The notes under the pieces were generated by a model. The model did not search any database. It worked only from the letters and a program-made list of their open reading frames with translations, and was not told where the DNA came from. The translations under genes were made by a program, and so were the position numbers. DNA of 64,000 nucleotides from an uncultured Candidatus Saccharibacteria bacterium (GTDB taxonomy: Bacteria > Patescibacteriota > Doudnabacteria > UBA920). Positions 7,634-35,358 of this stretch are shown piece after piece (the first letter of the stretch is position 1; every line of letters starts with the position of its first letter). The stretch spans positions 57,831 to 121,830 of the forward strand of contig CAZEKH010000002.1 in the NCBI GenBank assembly GCA_964512925.1, written 5' to 3'.

Positions 7634-7689
7634 ACATTTTAGAGTGTTTCAAAAACAGGATAAATTTCAATTTATTCATATACAAAAAT

Positions 7690-7720
7690 ACCCAGCCCGT
7701 TTAAAAGGGCTGGGTATTTT
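7690..7720. terminator. rho-independent terminator hairpin between convergent genes
   Basis: ACCCAGCCC-GTTTAAAA-GGGCTGGGT followed by ATTTT. Lies between the 7214..7633 (+) and 7729..8487 (-) genes. Confidence 0.6.
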
Positions 7721-7728
7721 ATAAAAAT

Positions 7729-8487: not shown

Positions 8488-8596
8488 TTTTTTCCTTTCT
8501 TTTTTAATTTTTCCTTAATTCTCATAGCAAAAATATGCTATGATATGGATATGCTTAAATACTTAAATATATTCTAAGCCTTATATAGGCTACCAT

Positions 8597-16933: not shown

Positions 16934-18034
16934 ATGGACAAGAAAAAAATTGGTAAACTTTCTAAAGGTTTGCAGGAACTCATACAAGAAGAACCAAACG
17001 CAAAGACTAGCGGGACAGTCAGTCAGTTTGTCAGTAAATCAGTAAAACCGGTTTCGGCTTACGCTGAAAGGACGCTTAACCACTTAAACGGCGGTTCTAC
17101 TTTGCAGGCGGCTTTATGGCTAAAAGAACATTTAAAAAACGGCGGTAAAATTGTAGTTACTTTGGCCGGCGCCCTCTCCTCTTTTCAAGTGGGCGTAATG
17201 CTTTCAGAACTCATAAGAAAAAACAAAGTTCATTTAGTTTCCGCCACCGGAGCCAACCACGAAGAAAGCTACTACCGCTATGTAGCCCACTCCCACTATG
17301 CCTATATCCCCCGCTATACAGAGCTAACTCCAGAGCAGGAAGCTGAACTGCGGGATGCCGGACTTAGGAGAATAACCGACACTTTTTTGCCTGAAGACGA
17401 AAGCGTCAGGATAATGGAGCCTCACCTTTTGAAAATGTGGAAAGAAGCTGAGAAAAAAAATGAAAGCTATTTTCCCCATGAATATTTTAGAAGGCTCTAT
17501 AAAGAAAAACTCATCAAACCAGACCCCAAAGCAAACCCTCTGGACGCTTGGACTTACGCGGCATTTGAAAAAAACATTCCTATTGTTATCCCAGGCTTTG
17601 AAGACAGCACAATGGGCAATATTTTTGCCAGCTATACCTACAAAGGCTCATTAAAAAGCAAAAAAGATGTATTTTTAAATGGTAGTGTAATGAAGACCGG
17701 ACTAGACTATTTCCACCTAATGTATGACTGGTACGCCAAAGAAAGCAAAGACGCGCCCATAGCTTTCCTACAGCTCGGCGGCGGTATAGCAGCTGACTTT
17801 CCGATCTGTGTCGTACCTTCCATCAAGCACGATCTTAAACACCACAAAGTCCGGGACTGGGCAGGCTTCATAGAAATCGGTTCCTCGCCTATGTCCTACG
17901 GCTCCTACTCAGGAGCTGGCGGCAAGGAAAAGATAACCTGGGACAAACTCTCCACCCAAAGCTACTATCAGATCATCCAAAGCGATGTTACAGTTGCTTT
18001 CCCCTGGATAGCCGCCATACTTTTAGACTTATAA
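16934..18034 (+). CDS. deoxyhypusine synthase-like protein (probable homospermidine synthase)
   Basis: DHS-family NAD-binding pattern (VTLAGALSS..., ...VSATGANHEESY). It follows the aguA and aguB genes. Confidence 0.75.
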   Translation: MDKKKIGKLSKGLQELIQEEPNAKTSGTVSQFVSKSVKPVSAYAERTLNHLNGGSTLQAALWLKEHLKNGGKIVVTLAGALSSFQVGVMLSELIRKNKVHLVSATGANHEESYYRYVAHSHYAYIPRYTELTPEQEAELRDAGLRRITDTFLPEDESVRIMEPHLLKMWKEAEKKNESYFPHEYFRRLYKEKLIKPDPKANPLDAWTYAAFEKNIPIVIPGFEDSTMGNIFASYTYKGSLKSKKDVFLNGSVMKTGLDYFHLMYDWYAKESKDAPIAFLQLGGGIAADFPICVVPSIKHDLKHHKVRDWAGFIEIGSSPMSYGSYSGAGGKEKITWDKLSTQSYYQIIQSDVTVAFPWIAAILLDL

Positions 18035-18527: not shown

Positions 18528-19850
18528 CTAATAGTCTTTAAGCTTATGCACGCTGGTATGGTCGCGGATTTTTTCCAAAGCTTTGGACTCAATCTGCCTG
18601 ATGCGTTCGCGGGTTACCCCAAACTCTTCGCCCACTTCTTCCAAAGTATGAGTTACGCCGTCTTCAAGTCCAAAACGCATTTTTAATATCTTTTGCTCTC
18701 TGGGGTCCAGGTCGTGCATTATGCCCTGCACATACTCTTTCAAAATCTGCCGGCCTGCCATATCGTGGGGCTTGGCTGTGTCCTCGTCAACAATGAAATC
18801 CCCCAAAGAAGTATCTTCCCCTTCGTCTTCGCCTACGGGAGAATCTATGGATACCGTTTCCTGGGAAATCTTTTTTAAGTGGTAAACTTTTTCCACCTCT
18901 ATGCCCATCTCAGCAGCTATCTCTTCCGGCAAAGGTTCTCTGCCTAAATCCTGAACCAAGGACCTTTCAGCCTGGGCGTACTTATTTAAAGTTTCCACCA
19001 TATGCACCGGAATGCGGATGGTGCGGCTTTGGTCGGCTAAAGCGCGGGTGATAGCCTGCCTTATCCACCAGGTTGCATAAGTGGAAAATTTATAACCTTT
19101 AGTCCAATCAAATTTTTCTACTGCACGGAAAAGACCTAGGTTACCTTCTTGAATAAGATCCAAAAGTCCCAAATTTCTTCCCATATATTTTTTTGCAATG
19201 GAAACCACCAGCCTTAAGTTAGCTTCAGTCAATTTCTTCCTGGCTGCCACATCGCCCTTTTCCACTCTTTTTGCCAAATCAATTTCTTCCTCGCCAGTCA
19301 AAAGAGGCACCTTGCCTATCTCGCGCAAATACATCTGGATAGAGTCATCGTAAATGTCGCCCAAGTCAAAAGCCTCAGCCGTTTCTTCCTGTTGTTTCTT
19401 TTTTTTCTTGGCCGCGGCTTTGGCTTTGGAATCTTTCGGCTCCTCTTCCGGCTCGGCTTTTTTGTTCTGCTCCCAAACGCTGGCGACTTCCTGATCAACC
19501 ACTTCCACGCCGCGCTTGTCTAAGATGTCTAAAACTTTTTCCAAGGCTTCCACATTGTCTTCAAAATACGGAAAAGCGTGGAGGATCTCAGCTTCCGTGA
19601 CAAAACTCCGTTCAAAGCCCTTATCCAAAAGTTTTTGCGCCAATTTTTCCGCTTCCTCGGCTGAAAACTCGGGCAATTTGTTTTTGATTTTGATTTCAGA
19701 TTTTTTCTGCAGACGCCTCAAAATCGCCTTTTTTACACTCGGGTTTTTTTTGCCCGCAGTTTTTTTAAAGGTTTTTTTTGCCCGCAGTTTTTTTAAAGGT
19801 TTTTTTACCTTTGCACTTTTCTTGATTTTGCTGACTTTATGCTTTTTCAT
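18528..19850 (-). CDS. rpoD: RNA polymerase sigma factor RpoD (sigma-70) with Lys-rich N-terminal extension
   Basis: Regions 1.2-4.2 are present ([39 protein letters not shown], region-4 HTH). Adjacent to dnaG. Confidence 0.9.
19743..19798. repeat. perfect 28-bp tandem duplication (2 copies) containing A8/A7 homopolymers inside the rpoD 5' coding region
   Basis: GTTTTTTTTGCCCGCAGTTTTTTTAAAG occurs twice head-to-tail. The two copies are read in different frames ([11 protein letters not shown] vs [10 protein letters not shown]). Confidence 0.7.
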
Positions 19851-21611
19851 TTAGGAGGATAAAAATTTTTCCCAAAAAATCCTTTTTCGGGAAATTTCTT
19901 CAAAATCTCTGCTTAATTTTGACAAACTTTCTGAATTCTTGCCTATTTCCGCCTGGCGGATCTCGCTTTGCAGCTTTTGCTGCTGCTTTTTAAAAGAATT
20001 TATGAGTAAAATGCCAAAAGCTCTTTTAAGTTCACGAAAAAAAATCTCCCTGTCCGTACTCTCTGCTAACATAGATTCTACCATAAATTCAGCCTCTTTG
20101 GCTAGTGCGCTGGAAGCGTCAAGCAAAACTTCCTTATCCTGAAAACCCGGAGCCAGTATTTCAGCGATGCGGGAGTCGGAAAAATCCCCTATCTTGCTTT
20201 CTTTATAAACCATTGCCCGAAAATCCGCATCCAGAAGCATTCCGCCCAAAATCTGCTTTTCCAAAGCCAAAACCCCTTCTGGCAGGCTGGTTTTAGGTTT
20301 ATTTTCCGGCTTTACCACACCGCCCCGGTTTTGTCTGACCAGCTCCCTGATGGTCCTGTCGGACACAGAAAATTTTTCCGACATTCTGCGGATATAATGA
20401 TCCTGCTCCAAAGCATCGCTGACATAAGCAAGTAGCGGCACCGTATGCTCGGTTAAGTAGTGCTTTTGTTCTACCGGGTCTTTAGGGAAAAGTTTTAAAG
20501 CAAAATCCATCTGCCAATCCAAAAACCAAACCGCTTCTGATACCGCCTTCTTCCAGAGGTTGGGACTTTTTTTTATGAGTTCGTCAGGGTCTTTGGCCGC
20601 GCCTAAGACCACCACTTTCAAACGGAAACCCTGCTTTAAAGCCAGCTCCCCGGCTTTTCTACAAGCCGCTTCGCCGGCCTGGTCTGAATCAAAACAAAAT
20701 TTTAAATTTTTACTAAGCGGCGAAAGCAAATTCAGCTGTTCTAAAGTCAAAGCCGTGCCGCTGCCGGCTACTACATTTTCAAACCCGGCCTGGTGCGCGG
20801 CTATACAGTCCATCTGCCCTTCCACCAAGACAGCCTCGTCATTTTTACGGATAGATTTTTTGGCAAAATTCAAACCAAACAAAATTTTACTCTTGTGGTA
20901 AATCAAACTTTCCGGCGAATTTATATATTTACCAGCTTTGCCGTCGTCCAAAGACGGCAGTATACGGGCGGAAAAACCCACAGCCTGGCCAAAAGAGTCA
21001 AAGATCGGAAAAGTGATGCGGCCGCGAAACCGGTCATACACCTGCCCGCGTTCGTTTTTAGTCAGCACCCCGGCCTGTATAGCCGCCTCAGGAAAAACTT
21101 TCTTTTTTTGCAAAGCCTGCTCTAAAGTATGAAAATCCGCTGGCGCAAAACCGACCTGCCATTTTTTTAAAGTTTCTTCCGCAAGTCCCCTTTTTTGCAA
21201 ATACTCCAAAGCCTCTTTGGCGCGCCTGTCTTCAAACAAAATTTTATGGTAAAATCTGGCGGCAAAGTCATTGATTTTGTTTAGCAGTTCTTTTTCGTCA
21301 CGGATTTTCGGATCCTGGGGCCTAAACTCCGGCAAAGTGACGCCGGCTTTTTGGGCTAAAATTTTCAAAGCTTCCTTAAAGTCCACATTTTCAAACTTCT
21401 CCACGAATTCAAAAATATCCCCGCCTTCCCCACAACCAAAACAGTGCCATACCTGGCGGGCAGGGTTAATATGGAAAGACGGCGTCCGTTCGTTATGAAA
21501 AGGACACAAAGCTTTAAAATTCGCCCCGGCTTTTTTCACCTGGATATACCCCCCTATCACATCCGCCACACTCAGCCGGTCTTTTATGTCTTGTACTGTT
21601 GAATCAGCCAT
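19851..21611 (-). CDS. dnaG: DNA primase DnaG
   Basis: CHC2 zinc finger (CPFHNERTPSFHINPARQVWHCFGCGEGGD) and TOPRIM (VLVEGQMDCIAAHQAG). Confidence 0.9.
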   Translation of the reverse strand: MADSTVQDIKDRLSVADVIGGYIQVKKAGANFKALCPFHNERTPSFHINPARQVWHCFGCGEGGDIFEFVEKFENVDFKEALKILAQKAGVTLPEFRPQDPKIRDEKELLNKINDFAARFYHKILFEDRRAKEALEYLQKRGLAEETLKKWQVGFAPADFHTLEQALQKKKVFPEAAIQAGVLTKNERGQVYDRFRGRITFPIFDSFGQAVGFSARILPSLDDGKAGKYINSPESLIYHKSKILFGLNFAKKSIRKNDEAVLVEGQMDCIAAHQAGFENVVAGSGTALTLEQLNLLSPLSKNLKFCFDSDQAGEAACRKAGELALKQGFRLKVVVLGAAKDPDELIKKSPNLWKKAVSEAVWFLDWQMDFALKLFPKDPVEQKHYLTEHTVPLLAYVSDALEQDHYIRRMSEKFSVSDRTIRELVRQNRGGVVKPENKPKTSLPEGVLALEKQILGGMLLDADFRAMVYKESKIGDFSDSRIAEILAPGFQDKEVLLDASSALAKEAEFMVESMLAESTDREIFFRELKRAFGILLINSFKKQQQKLQSEIRQAEIGKNSESLSKLSRDFEEISRKRIFWEKFLSS

Positions 21612-21715: not shown

Positions 21716-23344
21716 CTAACTCTCAGTTATATCTGGAGAGATCGCATAGTGGTCGAGTGCGCTCGCTTGGAAAGCGAGTAAACCTTTACCGGTTTCGGGG
21801 GTTCGAATCCCCCTCTCTCCGCCAGATTTCCAAGTTTGAACCGAAGTGTTTGCAAGGCTTTTTGAGCCTTTAGACGGCTTCGGAGGTTCGATCTTGGAGA
21901 CTTGCAAGTCCATAAGAACATCAAAGACTGGCGTCCATATCGGCGTCAGTTTTTGATTCCTGACGACAAAACCCTCAAAGCAAAGCTTCATCAATGTACG
22001 CTTTTGGTGCAAACCACTCGTCTGGAATACTCTATCCGCATGATCAGTGAAGTCCAAAAGCTCGTTGAACTTTTGAACAAACTTGTCCGACTTTCCCTCG
22101 AGCTCTCCCAAGCGATCCTGATACATCTCTTTCTCTCGCAAGAGCTCGTCCTGAATCTTTATAAATACATCTGCGTCAATGATGCGTTTTGAACGATCCA
22201 CCACGATATTGCGGATCTGTTGCTGAAGCCTTATAAGCTCTTGCTTGAGACTTTTTCTCTCTTTATCCTCCTGATCCAAACGCTCTTTAGCGAAATATTG
22301 AAAATAAGAATCAAGTACCTTTTTGAATTTATCTGGAAGCTGTACTCGTCCGAGCATTACTGCAACCTGCGCCTCGACATCCTCCCAGCGCATATATTTC
22401 TTTTCTACACACTTGGGGTCTTTACGATGACTGCACGAATAATATAGATGGCCTTTTTGCATTTGACCACAAAGCATTGATCCGCAGTCACCACACCTCA
22501 TAAAACCAGCCATTGGATACGAGTGCTTTCGTGTGCGGTCGGCGTAGTGATTATGTTGCTCGATAATTTCTTGAACATCATCAAAAAGTTTTTTGGTTAC
22601 AAGAGGAGGAAAATTTGCCTGAGAAGTTGCTGAGCGAGTTTTAATAAGACCGTAATAGAGTGAATTTGCCAGTATATGCTCAAGAGTCTTACGGCCGACC
22701 AATTTGCCACTGCGAGTCTTTAAACCACGTTTATTGAGCTCTGCTGACAGAGATTCGTAGGAATACTTGCCGGAAGCATAAAGCTCAAAAGCCAACTTTA
22801 TATACGGAGCTCGAATATTATCGATTATAAGCGACTTAGACTTCTTATCATTTAAATAGCCTAAAGGTGCCACTCCCGGAAACCTGCCACGTTCTACAGC
22901 CTCTTTAAGACCTTTCTTGACCTCCCAGCTGATGTTCTGAGATGTCCATTGAGCGATTGACGACATGATGTTTTCAACAAGCTCACCGGAAAAGGATTCA
23001 TCAAATTGCTCGACTACTGAGATAAGGCGGACGTCATGCTTCTTTAGCATCATCTTGATAGCCGCGTAGTCGGCGACGTTACGGCACATACGGTCAAGCT
23101 TGTGGATTAGGATAACATCAACTTTATTGTCGGTCTTTGCTCGATGAAGCATTTTTTGAATCTGTGGACGTTCAACGGTTCGAGCTGATTCACCTTTTTC
23201 TTCATAAACGCCATCTGGTAGTAGATTCCAATGGTGATCCATGCCGTATTTTTGGCATGCTTTGACCTGTGCAGGAATACTCAATTCTCGTTCGGCCTGA
23301 CGAGAGGTAGAGACACGGCCGTAAATTAAATAATTTGTGCTCAT
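21716..23344 (-). CDS. large serine recombinase (phage integrase); annotated 3' end reads through tRNA-Ser
   Basis: N-terminal resolvase catalytic motif (LIYGRVSTSRQ), recombinase domain, Cys-rich zinc ribbon (CGDCGSMLCG...YYSCSHRK) and coiled coil. The last ~35 codons are antisense to the tRNA. Confidence 0.85.
   Translation of the reverse strand: MSTNYLIYGRVSTSRQAERELSIPAQVKACQKYGMDHHWNLLPDGVYEEKGESARTVERPQIQKMLHRAKTDNKVDVILIHKLDRMCRNVADYAAIKMMLKKHDVRLISVVEQFDESFSGELVENIMSSIAQWTSQNISWEVKKGLKEAVERGRFPGVAPLGYLNDKKSKSLIIDNIRAPYIKLAFELYASGKYSYESLSAELNKRGLKTRSGKLVGRKTLEHILANSLYYGLIKTRSATSQANFPPLVTKKLFDDVQEIIEQHNHYADRTRKHSYPMAGFMRCGDCGSMLCGQMQKGHLYYSCSHRKDPKCVEKKYMRWEDVEAQVAVMLGRVQLPDKFKKVLDSYFQYFAKERLDQEDKERKSLKQELIRLQQQIRNIVVDRSKRIIDADVFIKIQDELLREKEMYQDRLGELEGKSDKFVQKFNELLDFTDHADRVFQTSGLHQKRTLMKLCFEGFVVRNQKLTPIWTPVFDVLMDLQVSKIEPPKPSKGSKSLANTSVQTWKSGGERGIRTPETGKGLLAFQASALDHYAISPDITES
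21735..21824 (+). tRNA. tRNA-Ser (anticodon GGA), type II with long variable arm, CCA encoded
   Basis: Hand-folded: acceptor GGAGAGA/TCTCTCC, 3-bp D stem, anticodon stem CTCGC/GCGAG with loop TTGGAAA, variable arm AAACC..GGTTT, T-arm GGGGG-TTCGAAT-CCCCC, G-CCA. Confidence 0.85.
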
Positions 23345-23395
23345 AATTTTGTTTCTAAAAAGCGGCAGGGCTCTCGCATTGAGAGCCCTGTGTGG

Positions 23396-24121
23396 TTAGT
23401 ATTTTTTTAAGTGATAAATTAGCCGACCTATTATCTTGCTCTCCGTGAGACGATAGGTTTTTTTGAAGCCTTCCTTCTCCGGCCGGAGTTCCAAATGATC
23501 TCCTCGTTCGAAATAGTGGGTCATGATTATTCCGTCTGGAGTACCCACTATTGTGATATCGCCGTTCTTCGGCGGCTGGTCGGCATCAAGGATTATAAAG
23601 TCGCCGGAAAGAATGCCTGCGTCCGGCAGATCAAGATCGGTGACTCGGATTCCGAACACCCGATGCTCAACTGGAAAGTTTTCGTGCGGTAGCATGACGA
23701 ACTCGTTGGTCATGCTCAGATGATCATCGAGATTGTCTATCGGAATCGCCACGAGCACCGGCAGTTTAAAATGTCCTTCGACCGAAAAAGTATTTTTCAA
23801 ATCTTCCAACCCCTGTTCCAATTTGGCGGTTGCCTCATGCATCCGCTTCTCGCCGACATCTTTCATGTTGAACTTATAGTTGGTGTCCATGCTGACCTTG
23901 AGGATCTTGGCCTCGGTCCAACGTTTCTTCAAATCGGCCTCCGGCAGATCATAAGCCGTGGCCAAAATCGACATTTGCTTTGCTGACGGGACACGTGTCC
24001 CGTTCTCCAGCTGGCTGACATAGCTCGACGAAAAGCCGAGCCGCTCGGCTACCTCCTTGATCGTCCGACCACTGGTCTCACGTTTTTGTCTCAGATACGA
24101 ACCAAATGACATAAATGGCAT
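23396..24121 (-). CDS. CI-like repressor (XRE HTH + S24 LexA-like peptidase domain)
   Basis: N-terminal HTH (TIKEVAERLGFSSSYVSQLENG). C-terminal S24-like region (GDFIILD...GDITIV). Confidence 0.8.
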   Translation of the reverse strand: MPFMSFGSYLRQKRETSGRTIKEVAERLGFSSSYVSQLENGTRVPSAKQMSILATAYDLPEADLKKRWTEAKILKVSMDTNYKFNMKDVGEKRMHEATAKLEQGLEDLKNTFSVEGHFKLPVLVAIPIDNLDDHLSMTNEFVMLPHENFPVEHRVFGIRVTDLDLPDAGILSGDFIILDADQPPKNGDITIVGTPDGIIMTHYFERGDHLELRPEKEGFKKTYRLTESKIIGRLIYHLKKY

Positions 24122-26591: not shown

Positions 26592-27005
26592 CTACTGTTG
26601 TAACTCCTTGATGGTCGTGTCCTGCTCGATGAGCTTTTCTCTCGCTTTTTCGAGCGCGGCCCGCAGGAGATCTGCCTCGTCATTGTTCTCAATGATCAAT
26701 CCTTGGAAGGATCGATAGACAACGAACGAAACAGGCATTGCGAGGGCGACGATGGCGAAAGCGGACAGTACGAGGTCAAGCGGCCACCACCATTGAATAA
26801 TCCTCGGCTGGTAGCATGCTACCAGTGCGAAGCTCACCCAATGACTCATGCAGTACGGGCAAGTGAACAGCTTTCCGAGCCATTCATTGCGTTCTCGTAT
26901 CCACTCGCGCAGATACTGGAACACACTTGCTCTTGTGATGGTAAGCGAGATGACGGCGACTGGCAGTGACAGGAGAAGCACCACCAAAAGCGACTGTGTA
27001 TTCAT
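26592..27005 (-). CDS. small 3-TM membrane protein with CPYC motif
   Basis: Start set at the ATG after TAAGGAGG (MNTQSLL...). FTCPYCMSHW sits between TM1 and TM2. Last gene of the coupled cassette. Confidence 0.5.
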   Translation of the reverse strand: MNTQSLLVVLLLSLPVAVISLTITRASVFQYLREWIRERNEWLGKLFTCPYCMSHWVSFALVACYQPRIIQWWWPLDLVLSAFAIVALAMPVSFVVYRSFQGLIIENNDEADLLRAALEKAREKLIEQDTTIKELQQ

Positions 27006-27016
27006 GGCGTTCCTCC

Positions 27017-27187
27017 TTAACACCCACACTGCTTGCGCGGCGTGGTTTTTTGTAGGAGCTTGTCGATCTCATTCAAGAGATCTCCAACCTCCGGGACTTC
27101 AGCCTTCCGATCCTTCAGCTCGAGCGGAGTGTTGCCGTTGCCGTTGGTCGGACGCTGTGTTTTCGGTTTTTTCTGATCGAATTGCAT
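27017..27187 (-). CDS. 56-aa protein with Pup-like Mpa-binding helix motif (EVGDLLNEIDKLLQK), C-terminus ...RKQCGC
   Basis: ATG preceded by AAGGAGG, 10 nt after the AAA gene stop. DLLNEIDKLL resembles Pup DDLLDEIDDVL. It lacks the GGQ/GGE end. Confidence 0.45.
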   Translation of the reverse strand: MQFDQKKPKTQRPTNGNGNTPLELKDRKAEVPEVGDLLNEIDKLLQKTTPRKQCGC

Positions 27188-27197
27188 AGCGTCCTCC

Positions 27198-29192
27198 TTA
27201 ATTGGCCGCGGCGCCGGAACTCTGCCGGAGCTTGCGGATACTGACGACGTCGTCGCGGAAATCGTGAACGAAATCCGCAATCTCATCGTTGTGGTTGAGG
27301 TCGAAGTTCTGCTGGAACACGCATTCCACAGACTGCATCAAGTCATCCTTCGACATCCCTTGCGGTTTGCCGGTGGAGATATCCCGATGCAGGGCAATGG
27401 ACGTTGCTTGATCCACAACGCCAGCAATCATGGCACCACTGGCCAAGTCTCCCAGCGTGAAGCTACGAGTCTCGTCTTTGTGATTGCCGTTGAGCTGGAT
27501 CGAGTAGAGCACGCGTTTTTCCGAGAACAACTCGAGCGCGCCGACATCCGAGAGCTCGTCATGCGTGTAGCCGTTGTAAAGCGGCACTCGCTTGAGGTAG
27601 AGCCCGAAGATATCACGCGAAGCGTTGAGGTCGGGACGGATGATTTTGACCTTGCGGTCAACACGCCCGTCGCGCGTAACTGCCGGATCGAGGATGTCAG
27701 CCCGATTGGTTGCCAAGAGCACGATTGCTCCGGTTTCCTCGAGGCCGTCCATCTCTGCCAGGAACTGAGGAACGATGGTACGCTCGATGTCCGAACTGAT
27801 TCCCATGCCACGCTTACCGAGAATAGCGTCAGCTTCGTCGATGAAGATCACCGCCGGGTAGCCGTGCTGTTCCTTGTGCTTGCGCGAACGTTGGAAGATC
27901 TGTCGGATGGTTGCCTCCGCAACACCCACGAACCGGTCCAAAATTTCAGGGCCTTTGACGTAGATGAAACCGGAGGGAGCGGAACTGCCGCTGTGAAGCT
28001 TGGCGAGCGCTGTTGCGGCCGCCTTGCCGAGCATGGTCTTTCCGCATCCGGGAGGGCCGTACAGCAGGACACCCTTGATGGGCTTTTTGCCGTAGTGCTT
28101 GTAAATGTCCGGGTAACGGAATGGGAGTTCGATCGCTTCGACCATCTGCTTTTTGGCTTCCACCAAACCGCCGATGTCTTCCCATGCGACATTCGTTGCC
28201 GCCGTGAATGAGAAGCGTTCGTCCTCTTTGCCGAGGTTGAGTCCGATGACAGTGGCACTCTGGTCGAGAACCACGCGATCACCGATTTCCGGTTTAGCCG
28301 GAAGTTTACCATTGAGCACGACACGGATTGCTCCGTTGTGCTCGACTTCGCTCACAGTGTTGTCGATTGGCCGCCGCACGATGGAAATTTCTCCAGCGTA
28401 AACGGGAATCGCCACGTCCACTATTTGCATTGTCTGCATGGACAGCTTGACGGTGTCGCCCGGTTTGACATCTTTGTTGGCCGGCAACTCGACTTCGAGT
28501 TGCTTGCCTTCGTGGAGGACGATTGCCGTGCCGATGAACTGGTTTACGGGTTCGACATAAATCGAGGTCCCGACCCAGAACCAAGGCTCGTCATCAACCT
28601 TCTCGATGCGGACTCTGCGCCATTCTCCGTCGACGTTCCGGATCGTACCGGTTTTGCCGACATAGCGCTTGTCGCCGTTCTCGAACTTTCCAACGATGTC
28701 GACCTTGATTCCCTGAAGGAAATCCTGGGGTCTCGCATCGGGCTGATTCGGGATGGCGAGAGTCATGTTCTTGATCTGGGCGTAGTAGCGACTGGTGTCT
28801 CCGTCACTGAACTTAACGGTAATAACACCGTCGGAGTCCGGAGTGCGAACCACCATGCCGACTTCACCTTCACGATTGTCTGCGCCGGGCAGGATACGCA
28901 CCTGCGTATCTTTGGCGTATGCCGTTTTCTTTTCTGCATCGACGCGCAACACCACAGCGAGCACGAGCGGTGAGGCCGTGAGCTGTTGAAGCAGTTCGTT
29001 CTGCTCTGCCAGTTTGCCTTTGGCGGCTTCGAGCACCGCACGAAGCTCTTGAACTTCTTGCGAACTCTCGACCTCAAGCTGTTGCTTGAGCTGGCCGATA
29101 GTGTTCTGCAACTTCTCGGTTTGGGATTGACGCTGTTGATTCAGCTCTTCCCGTTTCGTGAGCATTTCGCCCAATTCGTCTCTCTTCTTCAT
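27198..29192 (-). CDS. ARC/Mpa-type (proteasome-associated-ATPase-like) AAA+ ATPase: N-terminal coiled coil, OB/beta-barrel region, AAA module
   Basis: Walker A GPPGCGKT, Walker B VIFIDEAD, second region of homology TNRADILDPAVTRDGRVDRK. ARC-type insertion AKLHSGSSAPSGFIYVKGPE and C-terminal SGAMIAGVVDQA...TGKPQG block. No C-terminal GQYL. Confidence 0.8.
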   Translation of the reverse strand: MKKRDELGEMLTKREELNQQRQSQTEKLQNTIGQLKQQLEVESSQEVQELRAVLEAAKGKLAEQNELLQQLTASPLVLAVVLRVDAEKKTAYAKDTQVRILPGADNREGEVGMVVRTPDSDGVITVKFSDGDTSRYYAQIKNMTLAIPNQPDARPQDFLQGIKVDIVGKFENGDKRYVGKTGTIRNVDGEWRRVRIEKVDDEPWFWVGTSIYVEPVNQFIGTAIVLHEGKQLEVELPANKDVKPGDTVKLSMQTMQIVDVAIPVYAGEISIVRRPIDNTVSEVEHNGAIRVVLNGKLPAKPEIGDRVVLDQSATVIGLNLGKEDERFSFTAATNVAWEDIGGLVEAKKQMVEAIELPFRYPDIYKHYGKKPIKGVLLYGPPGCGKTMLGKAAATALAKLHSGSSAPSGFIYVKGPEILDRFVGVAEATIRQIFQRSRKHKEQHGYPAVIFIDEADAILGKRGMGISSDIERTIVPQFLAEMDGLEETGAIVLLATNRADILDPAVTRDGRVDRKVKIIRPDLNASRDIFGLYLKRVPLYNGYTHDELSDVGALELFSEKRVLYSIQLNGNHKDETRSFTLGDLASGAMIAGVVDQATSIALHRDISTGKPQGMSKDDLMQSVECVFQQNFDLNHNDEIADFVHDFRDDVVSIRKLRQSSGAAAN

Positions 29193-29485
29193 GACTGACC
29201 TCCTGACCTTTTGACGTAGTTTTGAGTTTGACCATCTTCGGGATTTTCGAGGCAGACGTCGACTGCTCTCAAAACTTTTGTTCCCGACTGGTCGTCAATT
29301 GTGCCGACAGCGAAATGGACATTGAGCCCTCTCGCCAGTTCCAGTCCACCACGGACTGAAGCCACGACAAGCTTTTGCCCATCGTGCGGACTTTCGGAAT
29401 CTTTCACACGCACCTTCCAGGTCGGTTGACCTTTCGGGGATGTGTCAGACCCGACAACGAAACCTCTGTGCCGTTTCTGATCCAT
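29189..29485 (-). CDS. 99-aa beta-rich protein ending ...NYVKRSGGQS; stop overlaps the AAA gene ATG
   Basis: Start set at the ATG after AAAGGAG (MDQKRHRG...). The C-terminal tail resembles the Pup tail (AYVQKGGQ) plus one Ser. ATGA start/stop overlap with the downstream gene. Confidence 0.45.
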   Translation of the reverse strand: MDQKRHRGFVVGSDTSPKGQPTWKVRVKDSESPHDGQKLVVASVRGGLELARGLNVHFAVGTIDDQSGTKVLRAVDVCLENPEDGQTQNYVKRSGGQS

Positions 29486-29759
29486 GACCTTACTCCTTTC
29501 TGACCGGTATGTTTCTGTTGTTGCCGTTTGACCGAATTTGACCGTTTTGACCACCTCCTTTTCAGTTTTCAAAGATCTACTTCGGTTTCCAAGACACACG
29601 CCTTGGAATAGCTCATTATCGCATATTTGGCTTTGTTTGTCAATAACCAAGCCAAAACGCCGATTTTAGCTAACTTCTAAGCCCTATATTGCCGCCTAGG
29701 TAAGTTTTATACAAATTTCAGAGATTAAAGGATCTCCACTTTTACCTACTTTTTTATAT

Positions 29760-30092
29760 TCAATTTTGAAAAATATAAATCAAATTATTCCTGAAAATAA
29801 AAACAAGGACAATGAAAAATAAGGTCCCCAACAAGGAAATCTTTGAGTAATTATCGGCATGAGTTTTGCCGCCAATCAGAATATAGGTGAGCTCGTCAAC
29901 AAACAAGCCGAGACCTATAGCGAATACCAGCACGGAATGAATAAGTAAACCCACCACTATCCCGAGGAGTCCAAACATGTAATGGTGCGTTCTGAATTTT
30001 CCGATCGTCGGTGCTGGTATTGGGCGTAGAAAAAGAAATAAACGAGTAGCCAAAATAGTTATCAAAAAAGTAAAAAAGAAGTAGATATTCAT
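29760..30092 (-). CDS. small polytopic membrane protein
   Basis: 110 aa with about 3 TM helices. ATGA-type overlap with the upstream SET-domain gene. Confidence 0.45.
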   Translation of the reverse strand: MNIYFFFTFLITILATRLFLFLRPIPAPTIGKFRTHHYMFGLLGIVVGLLIHSVLVFAIGLGLFVDELTYILIGGKTHADNYSKISLLGTLFFIVLVFIFRNNLIYIFQN

Positions 30093-30469
30093 TTTATTTC
30101 TCGGTGCTGGTCGATGTCGCCGTAAAAATCTTTATAATTCACAATCAATTCTTCTCCCGACTGTATGTCTCTCATTGCTGTCGTTATATCATCCATCCTC
30201 TCGTCGCAATTTGGATTGTCGGAATGATTGAAAAAACGAGCATCATCAGAACATAGTAAATACTTACTGTGCTTTTTATCAAGATATGCGTAATTGTAAA
30301 ACTGTTCTTTTGCCGGTCCAGATAGCTTTTTGATCTCTTCTTCCGTCATTAGGAGATCAAACCCCGGCATAAACTTCCAGACAGCAGTTCCTTTTGGAAT
30401 AAATTGATCAGCAAATAGACCTATACCCTGAATCTTACTTGGTGCAATTTTTGTTTTTACGCATAGCAT
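30089..30469 (-). CDS. minimal SET-domain protein (putative protein-lysine methyltransferase)
   Basis: GIGLFA...IPKGT (N-SET GxG), RFFNHSDNPNC (the NHSCxPN SAM/pseudoknot motif), GEELIVNY (ELxxxY). Size is about that of viral vSET. Confidence 0.75.
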   Translation of the reverse strand: MLCVKTKIAPSKIQGIGLFADQFIPKGTAVWKFMPGFDLLMTEEEIKKLSGPAKEQFYNYAYLDKKHSKYLLCSDDARFFNHSDNPNCDERMDDITTAMRDIQSGEELIVNYKDFYGDIDQHREIK

Positions 30470-30478
30470 AAATTTCTT

Positions 30479-33463
30479 TTACGATCTTATATATTTCTCG
30501 TCTCTAATATCGAAAGCCGGCAATGTACCCTCAAGTACATCGGAAGCCTTTTTATTTATATCGCAATTCTCGATACTGCCGAATGTATATCTGATCTGAT
30601 TTTTCTGTTTATTCATCGAGGCGGCGATGATCTGTTCAGCATCACAGACGATAGCCAAGTTGGGATTGTGGGTAACAATGATAACCTGTCTTTTTAGTTT
30701 TGCTTTCCGGATATACGGCACCAAAAGTTCAAAAATCGACTCGTTGTCGAGATTTTCCTCCGGCTGATCCATAATTAAAGGTCCACGGTCTTTATCGATC
30801 AGCAAGTAGAAAATCAAGAGAAGGGCACCCTTTTCACCCGGAGAGAACTCGTTGCTGTTCAAGTCCTTGCCGTTGAATAAAACTTTATATTTAACATCGA
30901 GATAATCTAAACCAAAGACGTAATCGTAGAATGAGACATTGTCACCCTTCAGTTGAGAGCAGATCGTGTTCTGTTTTTCTGGGGTCTTTGTCTTGTCGCT
31001 CGTAAGGTGATCGATCAATTCCTGCCTGAACGCCTTGACTCCGATAGGATTTGAAAAATCAGCTTTCTCGATAACCTTGCCGAGTATCTTTTGCCCGTTA
31101 TCGGCATACTGAAAGCTTCCATCACGACCCTGATTTATGAACCCTAAGAATTTAGCTGGGAATGATGCCTTGTCGAATACAATGCCTGCATCGAACTCGA
31201 GCATGCTACCCGTTTTCTGTTGCGTTTCTTTTTCTGACTCGATGAATTTTTGGAGAGGCATATAAACCTCTTTGTAAAATTCGCTTTTTTGTTGAAGTCC
31301 GGAATATAGCTTGTCGGACAGACCATCTCTGCTTACCATCGCCGCCTTCAGATCGGCATGAATTTTTTTATCAAGGTATTTTATTTCAGCCTCAATTGAT
31401 TTGATGGTCTCAAAAGTTTGATCATCGGCCGTTCCTTCAATCTCTTTTTTGCGCTCATTGTATTCCTTGAGTTTGTCTTGATAGGTCGAATATTTTCTCT
31501 GATCCTCACCAAGAACATCGATCAGTTTTTTCTTTTGACCTTCCAGCTCCAATTTCTTAGCATACAAACTGGTAGACGAAGTTCCGTTCTGATCAAGAAG
31601 TACGGTCAGCTTATCTCTTTTTGTGGTGAGCTTACTTTCTGTCGATTCAAGGATTTTGCTATGGACTGTTACCGTAAATAATTTTGTAAGGTCGATCGAA
31701 AGAAGTTTTGCGTCATCCGCAAAATCTCTTGAAATACTATCTGCACTTTGGGAGAGACGTTCAACTGCCGCCTTTAATTTTCCGAGTTTCAGGATCTTAT
31801 CGTTTACCGATTTGAGCGTGGCTTTTGTAGTATCTATTCTTGTTGAGACGGTCCCGATCTCGGTGGTTATTTTTGCGAGTTTATCTTGATCGCTTTTCTT
31901 GGGCTGTTTTTTGGGAGCCTGCACAGCTTTCGGCTTGGCCAGACTATTTAGTTCCTGCTGTTTGGCTTTGAGTTTGTTGCTCAGTGTTTCAAGATACTTA
32001 GGCAGTAGTTTATTTTCTAATTTTACGATCTCCTCGTTGGACAGATGTAAATCATTCTTGATCTGAGTGAGATTGCCATCGATTGTCGAGGTCTTGATGC
32101 GGATAAGGTCTTCAAGTGTAGTCGCTCCAAGTCGGCTCTCATCGGGGATATAAGAAAAAATAACTTTGTCTACTTCTCTCTGAAACTGGGTACTGACACC
32201 ATCTTCGTTGCATATCGTCTCAACGTATTTCTGCGGTAGATATTTAACTTTCTCAACTTCGGCCGGATTAACTTCGGCATCAAGATTTTCGGTGACTGAC
32301 GTCTTATCCAGCCAAGTCAAAACCGCCTCGTAATTTTTGGCGAGTCCTTTCTTTCTGAATTTGTCCTTATTAAGAAAGGAGAAATCCTTCGGTGCTATTT
32401 TGGTTCTTCCACAAAGAGCGATGATGTCATTCAGAGCACTTTTGCCTTGACCCTTTCTGCCTATGATCGCTACCAGTCCGGGGTTTAAGGGTATATCATC
32501 GTTGAACCAACCGGAGACTTGTTTGCCATCTGTATTACGGACATTTATAGATTCGATGAATCTCGAACTATTTGATTCAACGTCCATCAATTTATCCGGT
32601 TTGTCACCAAAGAATGTTCGTTCTCTCGGTTCGTGAGTAATCTGCCGCAAACCCTCGAAAGTTTTGTCTGCTTTTATCCAAGTCGGATAAGTGTGCCTGC
32701 CTTCATTTAAAAACGTCTTGCCGACCTTATCATCAAAATCTTTGAAAGAGTGTGCGTCGCTCCCTGAAACACACGGTTTTTTCTTTTTTACCTCGCCGCG
32801 ATCATTAAGGAAAAATTCTCTGTCCTTATCGTCACAGCCAAAGTAAATATCCGCCACTCGTTTGTCAGTTTCTTCGGCGACTGCGTTTTTTCTTGAATTA
32901 TTTTTTTCCGGTTGGAGACCTCCATGACCATGAGCCATTAGTATTCTAAAATAGGGCTTCTTGTCTCCAAAGGTATCCTTAAGAGCCTCGTCGATGAGCG
33001 GAATTGTTGTAAAGGCAGTTTTGAAATCACTGTCGGTTTTAAGCTCGTTCGCCTTTTTCTTCTTGCCGTTTCCGTCCGTATTTTCCAACTTCAAATTGGA
33101 CAAGAAGCTCTGCAAATCTTTGTCGGGTAGTTCATTGTTAAAAATAAGATGCAGATCATAGCCCTCATTGTGACTATTGGACGAACGATCGACTCGCAAT
33201 TCTACATTTGGGAAAAACACCTTTTCGGATTTTGGATATTTGGCTTGAAATTTCTTTTTGAATTCCAGATAATTCTCGACTGAAAAATAATCGGTAATGC
33301 CGAAAACTTCCACGTCTGATCGCTCAACCTTGTCGCAGAATTCAGCCCAGACATCACCGCCGTTGGCCAGGGCGTATCCGTTGTTTAATTTGGTAAAAGG
33401 CACGTGGAGATGTAAATCCCACTTTCGCCATTCTGAACCTTTTGGATAAGCTAAATTGCCCAT
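30479..33463 (-). CDS. PHP-domain + SMC/ABC-type ATPase fusion protein (architecture of the Ppl defence protein)
   Basis: PHP motifs DLHLH, GITDY, PNVELRV, GSDAHS. Walker A GRKGQGKSAL, about 350-aa coiled coil, signature FSPGEKGALL, Walker B LIMDQPEENLD, H-loop VTHNP. Confidence 0.75.
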   Translation of the reverse strand: MGNLAYPKGSEWRKWDLHLHVPFTKLNNGYALANGGDVWAEFCDKVERSDVEVFGITDYFSVENYLEFKKKFQAKYPKSEKVFFPNVELRVDRSSNSHNEGYDLHLIFNNELPDKDLQSFLSNLKLENTDGNGKKKKANELKTDSDFKTAFTTIPLIDEALKDTFGDKKPYFRILMAHGHGGLQPEKNNSRKNAVAEETDKRVADIYFGCDDKDREFFLNDRGEVKKKKPCVSGSDAHSFKDFDDKVGKTFLNEGRHTYPTWIKADKTFEGLRQITHEPRERTFFGDKPDKLMDVESNSSRFIESINVRNTDGKQVSGWFNDDIPLNPGLVAIIGRKGQGKSALNDIIALCGRTKIAPKDFSFLNKDKFRKKGLAKNYEAVLTWLDKTSVTENLDAEVNPAEVEKVKYLPQKYVETICNEDGVSTQFQREVDKVIFSYIPDESRLGATTLEDLIRIKTSTIDGNLTQIKNDLHLSNEEIVKLENKLLPKYLETLSNKLKAKQQELNSLAKPKAVQAPKKQPKKSDQDKLAKITTEIGTVSTRIDTTKATLKSVNDKILKLGKLKAAVERLSQSADSISRDFADDAKLLSIDLTKLFTVTVHSKILESTESKLTTKRDKLTVLLDQNGTSSTSLYAKKLELEGQKKKLIDVLGEDQRKYSTYQDKLKEYNERKKEIEGTADDQTFETIKSIEAEIKYLDKKIHADLKAAMVSRDGLSDKLYSGLQQKSEFYKEVYMPLQKFIESEKETQQKTGSMLEFDAGIVFDKASFPAKFLGFINQGRDGSFQYADNGQKILGKVIEKADFSNPIGVKAFRQELIDHLTSDKTKTPEKQNTICSQLKGDNVSFYDYVFGLDYLDVKYKVLFNGKDLNSNEFSPGEKGALLLIFYLLIDKDRGPLIMDQPEENLDNESIFELLVPYIRKAKLKRQVIIVTHNPNLAIVCDAEQIIAASMNKQKNQIRYTFGSIENCDINKKASDVLEGTLPAFDIRDEKYIRS

Positions 33464-33580
33464 ATTTACCAGTAAACTAAACTAATGTTTATAAATGCAT
33501 TATATCCCTCTTGACTTCATTTTGTCAATAATATACACTGGAAATAAGGAAATATAGACATTCCAGCGAACAAAACCACT

Positions 33581-34150
33581 ATGGACAGCTTAATTGCAAA
33601 ATTATATCAGTCAAATAAGACAATCCTGACCACCAAGGATCTGGCTTTGATTTGGGAGGAAAACGACAAACTGAAGTTAAACGTTAAAGCCGGATATTAC
33701 GTTAGACAGGGTGCATTGATCCGCCTGACCAGAGGCGTTTTTGCTAAGGATAAAAACTTCAATTCAAAGGAACTGGCGACCAGTCTCTATACTCCCTCCT
33801 ACATCAGCTTTGAAACGGTCTTGAGAGAATCCGGTGTTATCTTCCAGCACTACGATACAACCTTCGTTGCCGCCCAGCACCCGAAAACGGTAACGATCGA
33901 TAAATACACCTTCATCTTCAGAAAGCTGAAGGATGCTGTGCTGTTCAATACCACGGGAATAATAAACAAGGATAACTACAGCATCGCCACTCCGGAGAGA
34001 GCCTTCTTGGACATGATTTATCTGTCGCCGAATTACTACTTCGACAATCTGAAAGGGATCAACTGGGAAAAGTGTGAGGAGATCGTGAAAATTTACGATA
34101 ACAAGCAATTAATCAAGAGGTTGAATAAGTATAAGAAAAATTCTCAATAA
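33581..34150 (+). CDS. AbiEi-family antitoxin/transcriptional regulator (type IV TA)
   Basis: N-terminal wHTH-like segment. Size and pattern resemble AbiEi. Immediately precedes an AbiEii-type NTase. Confidence 0.6.
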   Translation: MDSLIAKLYQSNKTILTTKDLALIWEENDKLKLNVKAGYYVRQGALIRLTRGVFAKDKNFNSKELATSLYTPSYISFETVLRESGVIFQHYDTTFVAAQHPKTVTIDKYTFIFRKLKDAVLFNTTGIINKDNYSIATPERAFLDMIYLSPNYYFDNLKGINWEKCEEIVKIYDNKQLIKRLNKYKKNSQ

Positions 34151-34154
34151 AAAT

Positions 34155-34868
34155 ATGTTGAATAAAGAAAAGCATCAGTTAATAATGGGTCAGGTTTTGA
34201 AAGACATCTATACCGATGTCTCGATTAGTCCGCTCTTGGGTTTCAAAGGCGGCACCTGTGCTTACTTTTTCTATAACCTGCCGAGATTCTCGGTGGACTT
34301 GGATTTTGATTTGCTGGAAGTGACCGAGGAAAACCAAAAGATGGTTTTTGAAAAGATTGTCGCTATTTTAAGCAAGTACGGGACAATCAAGGATCAGTAC
34401 ATCAAGAGGTTTACAGTTTTTGCATTACTCTCCTACGGCGACGAGGATCACAATGTCAAAGTTGAGATCAATGTCCGCAAGCTGGCGGAAAATATAAAAG
34501 ACCTTTACGAGATGAAGGAATATCTGGGTATTTCAATGTTGGCGGCCAAGAAAGATTATTTGTTCGCTGGCAAATTGGCGGCTTTGACTTTGAGAACCGA
34601 AACAGCCATGAGAGACATTTTTGATATCCAGTATTTTGCCAAGAATCACTGGGATATCAATGCTGAAGTCATAAAGAATTTTACCGGGAAAACCGTCAAA
34701 GAATATCTGCCGGATTGCATCGCCTTTATCGAGAAAACCAAAGACAGCCAAATGTTGCAGGGGTTGGGAGAGCTGATTGATAGCGAGAAGCAGAAAGACT
34801 GGGTCCGAAATCACCTGAAAGCGGATGCTATCTTTATGCTGAAAAATTACCAATCTGTATTAAAATAA
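34155..34868 (+). CDS. AbiEii/AbiGii-family nucleotidyltransferase toxin
   Basis: NTase motif GGTCAYFFYNLPRFSVDLDFD (GS...DxD) and DUF1814-like C-terminal region. Confidence 0.75.
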   Translation: MLNKEKHQLIMGQVLKDIYTDVSISPLLGFKGGTCAYFFYNLPRFSVDLDFDLLEVTEENQKMVFEKIVAILSKYGTIKDQYIKRFTVFALLSYGDEDHNVKVEINVRKLAENIKDLYEMKEYLGISMLAAKKDYLFAGKLAALTLRTETAMRDIFDIQYFAKNHWDINAEVIKNFTGKTVKEYLPDCIAFIEKTKDSQMLQGLGELIDSEKQKDWVRNHLKADAIFMLKNYQSVLK

Positions 34869-34875
34869 AAACATT

Positions 34876-35358
34876 ATGGACAAAGAAAAAGACAAACGAT
34901 ACCTAAAGAAGTTCGAGATCGTCGAAACCGAAGTCGAACTTCCGATCCAAGGCCAAGTCCGTGATCCGGAAGACCTGTATAAGTTCCTCAAAGATTTGGA
35001 AAGTGAAAGTGTTTCCAAGGTTATAGGAATTTACCTCGATGACAAAAACCTCTTCCTCGGACACCAAGTATTCCTCGGCATGTCACCGCAGATTTTTGAT
35101 ACGCAACTCCTATACCACTACTACGCCCTCTTTCTGGCCAAGAAGTTTATGATCCTGATAAACCACCCGAACTCTGATGATCCGACTCCGGATGATGCTG
35201 ACAAGAAGCTGATCCGGGCCCTGCAAGCCGATGCTCAAGTGCTCTCGTTTAAACCTTTCTTTGCTGATTTTATTATCGTGGCAGGACGGTCATATTTCAG
35301 TATGGCCACAAACGACGGCACTGCTGGTCATGTGCATCAAAAGCATATACCGGAGTAA
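34876..35358 (+). CDS. RadC-like JAB/MPN-domain protein
   Basis: INHPNSDDPTPDDAD matches the RadC HNHPSGxPxPSxxD metal-binding motif. Confidence 0.65.
   Translation: MDKEKDKRYLKKFEIVETEVELPIQGQVRDPEDLYKFLKDLESESVSKVIGIYLDDKNLFLGHQVFLGMSPQIFDTQLLYHYYALFLAKKFMILINHPNSDDPTPDDADKKLIRALQADAQVLSFKPFFADFIIVAGRSYFSMATNDGTAGHVHQKHIPE

Follow-up and report, generated by a model that had tools for sequence, protein, structure and literature searches.

How might an Mpa-type unfoldase be used where neither a Pup ligase nor a proteasome is encoded beside it? This question is raised by four consecutive minus-strand genes in a 64-kb stretch of contig CAZEKH010000002.1 (64,000 nucleotides, hereafter the window), which encode, in this order, a 98-aa protein, a 664-aa ATPase, a 56-aa microprotein and a membrane protein of the DUF1360 family. 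Pupylation is treated as a system of four components, namely Pup, PafA/Dop, Mpa and the 20S proteasome, and occurs mainly in Actinobacteria and a few other phyla. A preliminary description of the window had assigned the ATPase to the Mpa/ARC type and had pointed to Pup-like motifs in both of the small proteins. Our analysis suggests that the cassette re-uses an Mpa/Pup-type recognition pair without ligase or protease, which would make it a new variant of the Pup-proteasome logic. In the reading that we prefer, to which we give a probability of about 0.4, the cassette encodes a membrane-coupled unfoldase or extractase, in which the microprotein would dock on the ATPase and be linked to the DUF1360 protein through a CxC/CxxC pair, with no degradation step.

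All four open reading frames (ORFs) were found where the preliminary description had placed them, and the peptide motifs quoted in it (EVGDLLNEIDKLLQK, ...RKQCGC, ...NYVKRSGGQS and CPYC) are all present. The first gene (29189..29485, minus strand, as for the whole cassette) encodes a protein of 98 aa, not the 99 aa given before. It is followed by the gene of the Mpa/ARC-like AAA+ ATPase at 27198..29192, identified by TIGR03689, an AlphaFold2 (AF2) model and Foldseek, and by the gene of the 56-aa microprotein at 27017..27187, in which hhalign against Pup and a family hidden Markov model (HMM) point to a Pup-like helix, EVPEVGDLLNEIDKLLQK, ahead of a C-terminal CGC. The DUF1360 gene (PF07098, phrog_781) lies at 26592..27005; starting from the ATG at 27005 it encodes 137 aa, while an upstream GTG would give 145 aa, and it ends at 26592. 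The translational coupling claimed for these genes is seen at each junction: the 98-aa ORF and the ATPase gene share an ATGA overlap, the ATPase gene leads into the 56-aa ORF through TAA-GGAGGA-N4-ATG, and the 56-aa ORF leads into the DUF1360 gene through TAA-GGAGGA-N5-ATG. Since the same gene order recurs across many unrelated contigs, the cassette is far beyond what chance would produce. A promoter-like site (TTGACA-17 nt-GATAAT with a TG extension; 29615..29643, minus strand) agrees with the sigma-70-like consensus at 11/12 positions and lies ~130 nt upstream of the first cassette gene; it is a consensus match only, as two such sites were seen in the 3.5-kb region against 1.8 expected from shuffles. 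The GC content of the cassette is 50-52% and that of the host flanks 34-44%, which calls for a correction of the earlier description. Nor is the cassette an exception in an otherwise plus-strand phage region, as had been stated, because the genes at 29760-33463 and 21716-24121 are also on the minus strand.

The comparison set consisted of 252 loci taken from species-representative genomes, metagenomes, IMG/VR and exact-protein look-ups. All ORFs in these loci were called (24,892 ORFs) and searched with HMMs built from the same loci; the HMMs for Dop/PafA, PrcA, PrcB and Pup were built from genuine Pup-proteasome loci, and the gene-neighborhood counts cover flanks of 6-10 kb per locus. Cassette loci from IMG/VR came from an alignment-based scan, while an IMG/VR scan with a single protein as the query gave no matches. 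The scans of genome and metagenome contigs recovered mostly genuine Mpa, owing to search patterns that were Walker A-like, and added few new cassette loci; the genuine Mpa loci served as the control set. Out of the 252 loci, Dop/PafA was carried by 108, Pup by 82, PrcB by 77, PrcA by 70 and DUF1360 by 22. Structure predictions are single-chain AF2 models.

The 664-aa protein is a true Mpa/ARC relative and not a proteasomal ATPase. Its best NCBIfam family is TIGR03689, with 329.3 bits and E 4e-98 over profile positions 61-489 of 512; CDC48 (201 bits), PAN (184) and FtsH (159) scored much lower, which speaks against placement in a generic AAA family such as FtsH or Cdc48, an outcome that the preliminary description had left to profile searches; the score is nevertheless below the equivalog cutoff of 504.75 bits. 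Among solved structures, no single-domain match was longer or better than that to Mpa chains, which cover query residues 229-640 at 227-232 bits; the totals for Cdc48 and VAT exceed that of Mpa only because two AAA domains are summed in each. The AF2 model (pLDDT 82) predicts a long helix at residues 2-72, a beta-rich region at 77-331 and an AAA module from ~344. The top 30 Foldseek matches of this model in the PDB were all Mpa (E 1.9e-34 to 3e-29; 31-35% identity over ~460-490 alignment columns), followed by Rpt subunits at ~1e-24. The domain order proposed earlier, namely coiled coil, oligonucleotide/oligosaccharide-binding (OB) region, post-Walker A insert and C-terminal block, is present in full. 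As in Mpa/ARC (TIGR03689; PDB 5kzf, 5kwa, 7px9), the coiled coil passes into the OB region through a (P)P-x-x-Y/L-A/G-V-V junction, and the end of the coiled coil together with this junction is homologous to Mpa (...VLEAAKGKLAEQNELLQQLTA-SPLVLAVVL in the window ATPase); the shared segment is the one that Pup binds in Mpa. The single classical AAA module carries the ARC-specific insert after Walker A, the C-terminal helical block contains 'sGAMI..V..A' as in Mpa, and the motor motifs are intact (Walker A/B, the pore loop (K/R)-(W/F)-V-G, sensor 1 and the arginine fingers).

Unlike Mpa/ARC, the window ATPase carries an extra inserted beta segment of ~130 aa in its OB region and ends in ...QSSGAAAN, without the GQYL/HbYX tail. 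The absence of GQYL had been claimed for this protein and holds for the 25/25 sequences of the long-form cassette clade: a penultimate Tyr (GQYL and variants) was found in none of these, as against 107/147 Pup-type ATPases. The Mpa-type motor is apparently active though the proteasome-docking motif has been lost. Because there is no peptidase partner, the expected output would be unfolding or remodeling rather than degradation.

The cassette ATPases also form a clade of their own. In a neighbor-joining (NJ) tree of the OB2-AAA-C-terminal region, midpoint-rooted and without bootstrap, the most recent common ancestor of the DUF1360-linked ATPases spans 40 leaves with no pupylation locus among them, while that of the Pup/Dop/20S-linked ATPases spans 147 leaves and no DUF1360 locus. 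Dop/PafA, PrcA, PrcB and Pup were found in 0/22 DUF1360 loci by HMM search, and these HMMs had no match anywhere in the 64-kb window; no pupylation or proteasome Pfam match was found within 10 kb of the cassette loci inspected. The statement that no Pup ligase, deamidase or 20S gene lies nearby thus applies to the window and equally to all homologous cassette loci examined, in which the ATPase is linked to a CxC microprotein and DUF1360 and never to pup, dop, pafA or prcAB. A search for the same neighborhood across metagenomes, proposed in the preliminary description, recovered the same gene order in Candidate Phyla Radiation (CPR) contigs, integrative elements and viral contigs; named hosts are mostly CPR. 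Some of the CPR contigs have ordinary chromosomal neighbors (L004 and L087), L088 is a second prophage with the same lysogeny module as the window, the elements in L002 and L089 are flanked by integrases or recombinases, and L091-L123 are viral contigs from IMG/VR, the longest of several hundred kb. Because integrative elements and CPR contexts that appear to be chromosomal carry the module as well, it is not restricted to phages, a point missed before. A short form of the module (L112, L113, L123, L142 and L250, from IMG/VR and metagenomes) is separated from the long form in the NJ tree. Its ATPase has 362-417 aa and a short coiled coil (in L250 only a 247-aa fragment), its small protein of ~80-118 aa contains GCGCGG or CCGCGC at an internal position, with an acidic segment behind it (...VP.DS...DGDY... 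in L113, L123 and L142), and its DUF1360 carries CP[YW]C.

A small ORF lies between the ATPase and DUF1360 genes in every DUF1360 locus (22 loci). The proteins of this family have a basic, Gly/Ser/Asn-rich N-terminus (basic and Gly/Asn-rich in the 56-aa member of the window), a central helix of the form (E/Q)VP(E/Q)(V/I)DD(L/V)LxEIDxxL and, in the long-form clade, a C-terminal CxC (CGC, CRC, CWC, CHC, CFCFR, CTCCC and others). A word-index search with the 56-aa protein returned only nine close relatives. A HMMER search of 1.84 billion representative proteins gave 31 microprotein clusters at E <= 1e-3, and all 28 microproteins that were fetched have 56-77 aa and a CxC at the C-terminus or at most 3 residues from it. 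None of the 28 ends in GGQ or GGE, and the exhaustive search with the microprotein family reached no genuine Pup. The ending ...RKQCGC, which had been noted in the 56-aa ORF in place of GGQ/GGE, is therefore one instance of a family-wide rule: the C-terminal CxC is, as judged from these sequences, the defining and most conserved trait of the family, and this had been missed. In comparison with Pup (PF05639), the microprotein is similar in size (~60 aa), in its polar, low-complexity N-terminus, in the position of its gene beside that of an Mpa-type ATPase and in a central helix, amphipathic and acidic, whose L-x-x-I-D-x-x-L register is that of the Mpa-binding helix. It differs in that its N-terminus is basic whereas that of Pup is acidic, in that it lacks both GGQ/GGE and the 'FVxxYVQKGGQ' region bound by PafA/Dop, with CxC standing at the end instead, and in that no ligase or deamidase gene lies near it. 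The Pup-like Mpa-binding helix proposed for the 56-aa ORF gains support from hhalign, which aligned the microprotein family with 18 diverse genuine Pups at 91% probability (E 1.1e-6) over 20 columns, corresponding to Pup residues 32-51, inside the Mpa-binding helix (Pup residues ~21-51); no alignment extended past Pup column 51. Since only the columns of the Mpa-binding helix align and CxC replaces GGQ/E, the microprotein would correspond to the docking half of Pup without the ligation half.

Variants of the small protein were seen in two further loci. In the viral contig L109, three small ORFs stand in a row at 7565-8683, each with the motif 'KLPxKPNxSxTLxKLDxxI' followed by Cys clusters; one precedes DUF1360 and two follow it, a pattern that would fit duplication of the microprotein to give several adaptors. 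A coupled 55-aa ORF in L172 (1640-1807) shows a Pup-like helix (DIDDVILEIDTHL) that ranks among the clearest outside the close relatives, and the ORF may be a natural variant of the microprotein without a hook.

The fourth protein matches PF07098 at 26.5 bits (cutoff 21 bits; E 6.4e-6), residues 40-97 covering profile positions 42-95 of 102 with CPYC included, and it matches phrog_781 at E 1.7e-8. The protein with three transmembrane (TM) segments and a CPYC motif that had been described accordingly shows three hydrophobic segments, the second of which begins with CPYCMSHW, and a C-terminal tail that is helical and charged. Among the DUF1360 proteins of the cassettes (17 unique sequences), both Cys of the motif C-x-[YWF]-C-x-x-[HF]-[WY] are invariant and the loop preceding it is rich in Arg/Lys, so the CxxC is predicted to lie at the cytoplasmic face, at the end of TM2. 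DUF1360 with an invariant CxxC is a conserved partner well beyond this prophage, which had also gone unnoticed. When DUF1360 is present, a coupled small ORF with a Cys cluster was scored in 14/16 loci by script and in 16/16 after L106 and L109, in which an extra ORF intervenes, had been inspected. The corresponding number for loci without DUF1360 is 6/23 (Fisher p = 2.4e-4 against 14/16, by a test that ignores phylogeny), and the background in the Pup-type clade is 6/136.

In the complex of PDB 3M9D, the Pup helix is said to lie on the Mpa coiled coil, with the disordered N-terminus entering the pore and the C-terminal end carrying the substrate. By analogy, we propose that the cassette is a module complete in itself and carried by mobile elements, at the center of which stands an unfoldase of the Mpa/ARC family that works without a proteasome. 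The microprotein helix would dock on the ATPase coiled coil as Pup does on Mpa, and its disordered basic N-terminus would point into the ATPase pore. The C-terminal CxC would then join the CxxC(H) of DUF1360 in a shared tetra-thiolate metal site, which is the most plausible link in a reducing cytoplasm, or, less likely, through a disulfide. The microprotein could thus act as a built-in hook in place of enzymatic pupylation, and this hook would serve either to anchor the unfoldase ring at the membrane or to offer DUF1360, together with whatever it holds, for extraction or unfolding. In the CPR-type sub-clade, the cold shock-like OB protein may be a further adaptor or a client. Candidate roles for the phage or the cell include superinfection exclusion or defense, the timing of lysis and the remodeling of envelope proteins; the roles in defense, anti-defense or remodeling of host proteins suggested in the preliminary description are likewise candidates. 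If this model is right, the arrangement would resemble FtsH, as a functional analogy only, in having an AAA+ ring at the cytoplasmic face of the membrane that possibly acts on membrane proteins; in contrast to FtsH, the anchor would be a separate protein reached through a microprotein adaptor, there is no protease domain, and the ATPase is closer to Mpa (329 vs 159 bits).

Several points weigh against this reading. To the lack of bootstrap values in the tree and of a phylogenetic correction in the Fisher test, we add that the predicted topology of DUF1360 is drawn from hydropathy and the positive-inside rule alone, and that the absence of pupylation and 20S genes applies to flanks of 6-10 kb. 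Six loci of the cassette clade have a Cys-cluster small ORF and no detectable DUF1360, and the coupled ORF of L172 has neither Cys nor a DUF1360 gene downstream; the pairing of microprotein and DUF1360 is therefore not obligatory. One alternative, somewhat unlikely in our estimate, is that the microprotein is a client, a regulator or an assembly factor of the ATPase, for example a pore plug or an activator, that its CxC forms a metal site or a dimer of its own, and that DUF1360 is linked to it functionally and not physically. L098, L100, L101 and L104, whose Cys-cluster small ORFs come without DUF1360, would fit such a protein, as would the three paralogous small Cys proteins in a row in L109 and the variants with 3-5 cysteines, which could bind metal without a partner. 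It accounts less well for the position of the Cys-cluster ORF, which in all 16 inspected loci with DUF1360 is found between the ATPase and DUF1360 genes, and for the fact that the CxxC of DUF1360 and the CxC of the small protein are both essentially invariant. The hook may also be taken further: the CxC microproteins could be a ligase-free counterpart of Pup, in which the terminal Cys attach a target, through metal or a disulfide/thiol, at the CxxC of DUF1360 or of other proteins, and the unfoldase extracts or remodels membrane proteins for mobile elements. This extended version we regard as unlikely.

A different objection, which we consider rather improbable, is that the likeness to Pup is convergent or compositional, that no docking takes place and that the three proteins are co-transcribed for some other membrane function, such as the control of lysis with DUF1360 as a holin-like protein. 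The profile comparisons bear on it in both directions. The alignment comprises only 20 columns, a length compatible with either homology or convergence, and the reciprocal search of the microproteins with a full-length Pup HMM was weak and not significant (best E 0.0097). In the Pfam search suggested for the small ORF, Pup (PF05639) was the only recurrent match (7/18 members, best E 0.0028), but the scores of 13.6-14.8 bits always stayed under the gathering threshold of 27 bits. When the family HMM was run against the 24,892 ORFs, on the other hand, the only matches outside the family were four genuine Pups (E 2e-5 to 5e-4), and the partner ATPase keeps a coiled-coil segment homologous to that of Mpa. 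As to lysis, class I holins have three TM segments and a charged C-terminal tail, which DUF1360 resembles, and the DUF1360 family is also known from phages without this ATPase (phrog_781; a mycobacteriophage mention). The cassette, however, has its own promoter-like site and lies in the lysogeny/accessory region, antisense to the late genes and away from the lysin gene (54794-56113).

It is quite improbable, in our judgment, that the cassette is a prophage defense or superinfection-exclusion system, with a membrane protein that senses or blocks infection and an unfoldase that executes the response. The surroundings would suit such a role: the window cassette lies between the lysogeny module and a putative defense island (Ppl-like ATPase, AbiEi/AbiEii), the L088 cassette stands beside a restriction-modification system and diversity-generating retroelement genes, helicase, methylase or SMC-like ATPase genes adjoin the cassette in L002, L089 and L090, and a promoter-like site of its own is typical of prophage accessory genes ('morons'). 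PADLOC-DB 2.0, however, did not recognize the cassette: the ATPase gave only generic AAA matches (IetA and TRIP13 models, 41-66 bits), DUF1360 one marginal match to LmuB (E 0.0082), and the 56-aa and 98-aa proteins no match. In addition, viral contigs of very large size, presumably lytic, contain the module too, as do chromosomal contexts that have no defense genes (L004). Finally, it is scarcely credible that the module simply belongs to a canonical Pup-proteasome system and that the ligase, deamidase and 20S genes of this system lie in another part of the host genome: the ATPase shares 34-42% identity with genuine Mpa (best-segment tblastn), JGI names its homologues 'proteasome-associated ATPase' and Pup/UBact systems have been reported in some candidate-phylum bacteria, but the GQYL/HbYX tail is missing throughout the clade, no microprotein has a GGQ/E end or the C-terminal region of Pup, the cassette travels on phages and integrative elements, and Dop/PafA, PrcA/B and Pup are found in most genuine Mpa loci at equal flank size and in no cassette locus.

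The preferred reading of a membrane-coupled unfoldase bears on several questions. In the cassette, an unfoldase of the Mpa type and a docking helix of the Pup type are uncoupled from ligase and protease alike, and phages and integrative elements carry it in very different bacteria. Provided that docking and the cysteine hook are real, it would be a minimal and compact means of directing an AAA+ unfoldase to a chosen partner, of interest both for biology and as a tool. It raises the questions of what use CPR prophages and very large phages make of it and of how Pup arose. If the ligase-free arrangement were ancestral, recognition between Pup and the coiled coil would predate enzymatic pupylation, with a bearing on the unresolved origin of Pup; should the Cys hook prove to be true ligase-free tagging, or an ancestral form of Pup, the system would be considerably more novel. 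DUF1360 gains its first testable partner and motif, and a new microprotein family is defined. Full-text literature searches found no account of a module of ATPase, microprotein and DUF1360, in keeping with the earlier remark that no such system had been described.

Searches of the INPHARED phages and PLSDB plasmids found ARC-like ATPases of another architecture only, and no annotated cultured phage or plasmid there has the cassette. These proteins, from the Brevundimonas phages vB_BpoS-Strzyga and vB_BpoS-Polewnik and the Methylobacterium indicum plasmid pVL1_2, likewise have ARC-like AAA modules and are encoded on mobile elements; in the AAA and C-terminal region their identity is 35-42%. A Cys-rich N-terminus replaces the coiled coil, however, and no CxC microprotein or DUF1360 lies downstream; they are a different, also uncharacterized, ARC-like lineage on mobile elements. 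The ATPases of both Brevundimonas phages bear the name 'proteasome-associated ATPase'; the gene of the cultured phage vB_BpoS-Strzyga (ON529867.1) lies at 3087-4499 of L251.

The upstream 98-aa protein had been put forward as a second Pup-like element because of its tail, and this part of the preliminary description was not borne out. The gene is confined to the CPR-type sub-clade of the cassette, and its product models as a five-stranded OB barrel with a fold of the cold-shock domain (CSD) type, the tail ...KRSGGQS being modeled at low confidence. The tail is found in 19/52 members of the family and so is not a quirk of the window; L002 and L004 are without it. The DNA that encodes ...KRSGGQS, tcAGGAGGtcagtcATGA, at the same time supplies the ATPase gene with its Shine-Dalgarno site, spacer and start codon. 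The AGGAGG site (29199..29204, minus strand) is embedded in the S-G-G codons of the upstream ORF, 6 nt before the ATG of the ATGA overlap, and AGGAGG or AAGGAG precedes the ATPase start by 6-8 nt in 7/7 loci examined (the window, L088, L087, L002, L004, L090 and L089). GGQS followed by a stop is translated only where the upstream ORF reads through to the ATGA overlap; where it stops earlier, the same AAGGAG site reads ...KRS* or ...TRR*, and in L090 it lies beyond the stop codon. The simplest reading is that the 'GGQ' tail is the conserved ribosome-binding site of the ATPase gene read in frame and not a pupylation-like terminus. Because GGQS is best explained as an in-frame ribosome-binding site and the modeled fold is OB/CSD and not beta-grasp, the upstream ORF was ruled out as a Pup-like or ubiquitin-like tag. 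More generally, as this ORF shows, a 'conserved' peptide tail can be an artifact of a ribosome-binding site. A conserved helical protein of 134-140 aa with the motif ...GWKVVW... precedes the 98-aa gene in several CPR loci (L002, 7074-7496; L004, 7294-7698; L087, duplicated at 8635-9051 and 9286-9699); it was not found in the window, L088 or L090.

The prophage setting of the cassette is clear from its neighbors. From the host side, the order is rpoD and dnaG (18528-21611), a serine recombinase, a CI/LexA-like repressor, an HTH_36 protein and the cassette; beyond it come a lower-GC island and then genes for a methyltransferase, ParB, terminase, portal, capsid, tail fiber and lysin. The recombinase at a tRNA-Ser, the repressor, the structural and lysin genes and the adjoining host dnaG/rpoD confirm the prophage that the preliminary description had proposed. 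The 3' end of the serine recombinase gene (21716-23344, minus strand) is overlapped by tRNA-Ser(GGA) (21716-21824, plus strand), which forms the boundary with host dnaG and rpoD, and this overlap is probably the attachment site. In agreement with the preliminary description, the host is non-actinobacterial: the named homologues of the cassette proteins are from Kerfeldbacteria, Staskawiczbacteria and Paceibacterota, and because the named homologues of both the cassette and the capsid proteins are CPR, the host is most probably a CPR/Patescibacteria bacterium. The major capsid protein (46226-47449, plus strand) falls into a cluster, defined at >=90% identity, that has 296 members, seen on contigs as long as ~1 Mb; one member (GMU25824.1) is from a 1.09-Mb contig of Candidatus Uhrbacteria. 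With 296 near-identical capsid proteins in this cluster, the prophage lineage therefore appears to be widespread in CPR bacteria.

The island at 29760-35358 has ~40-42% GC, as against ~50% in the cassette and the late genes, and looks like a defense island inserted beside the cassette. It includes a 110-aa membrane protein, a SET-domain protein (30089-30469), a 994-aa Ppl-like ATPase (30479-33463; PADLOC Ppl E 8e-17, with AAA_21/SMC_N matches at the C-terminus) and a complete AbiEi/AbiEii pair (33581-34868; E 4e-59 and 7e-68). Inside the prophage, between this accessory island and the DNA methyltransferase gene at 39096, lies a LOOT RNA (RF03000; 38609-38732, plus strand; Rfam 78.8 bits, the gathering score being 46.4, over the full length of the model). 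In the host flank, a gene at 16934-18034 (plus strand) clusters with proteins that JGI names deoxyhypusine synthase, an enzyme usually linked to archaea and eukaryotes.

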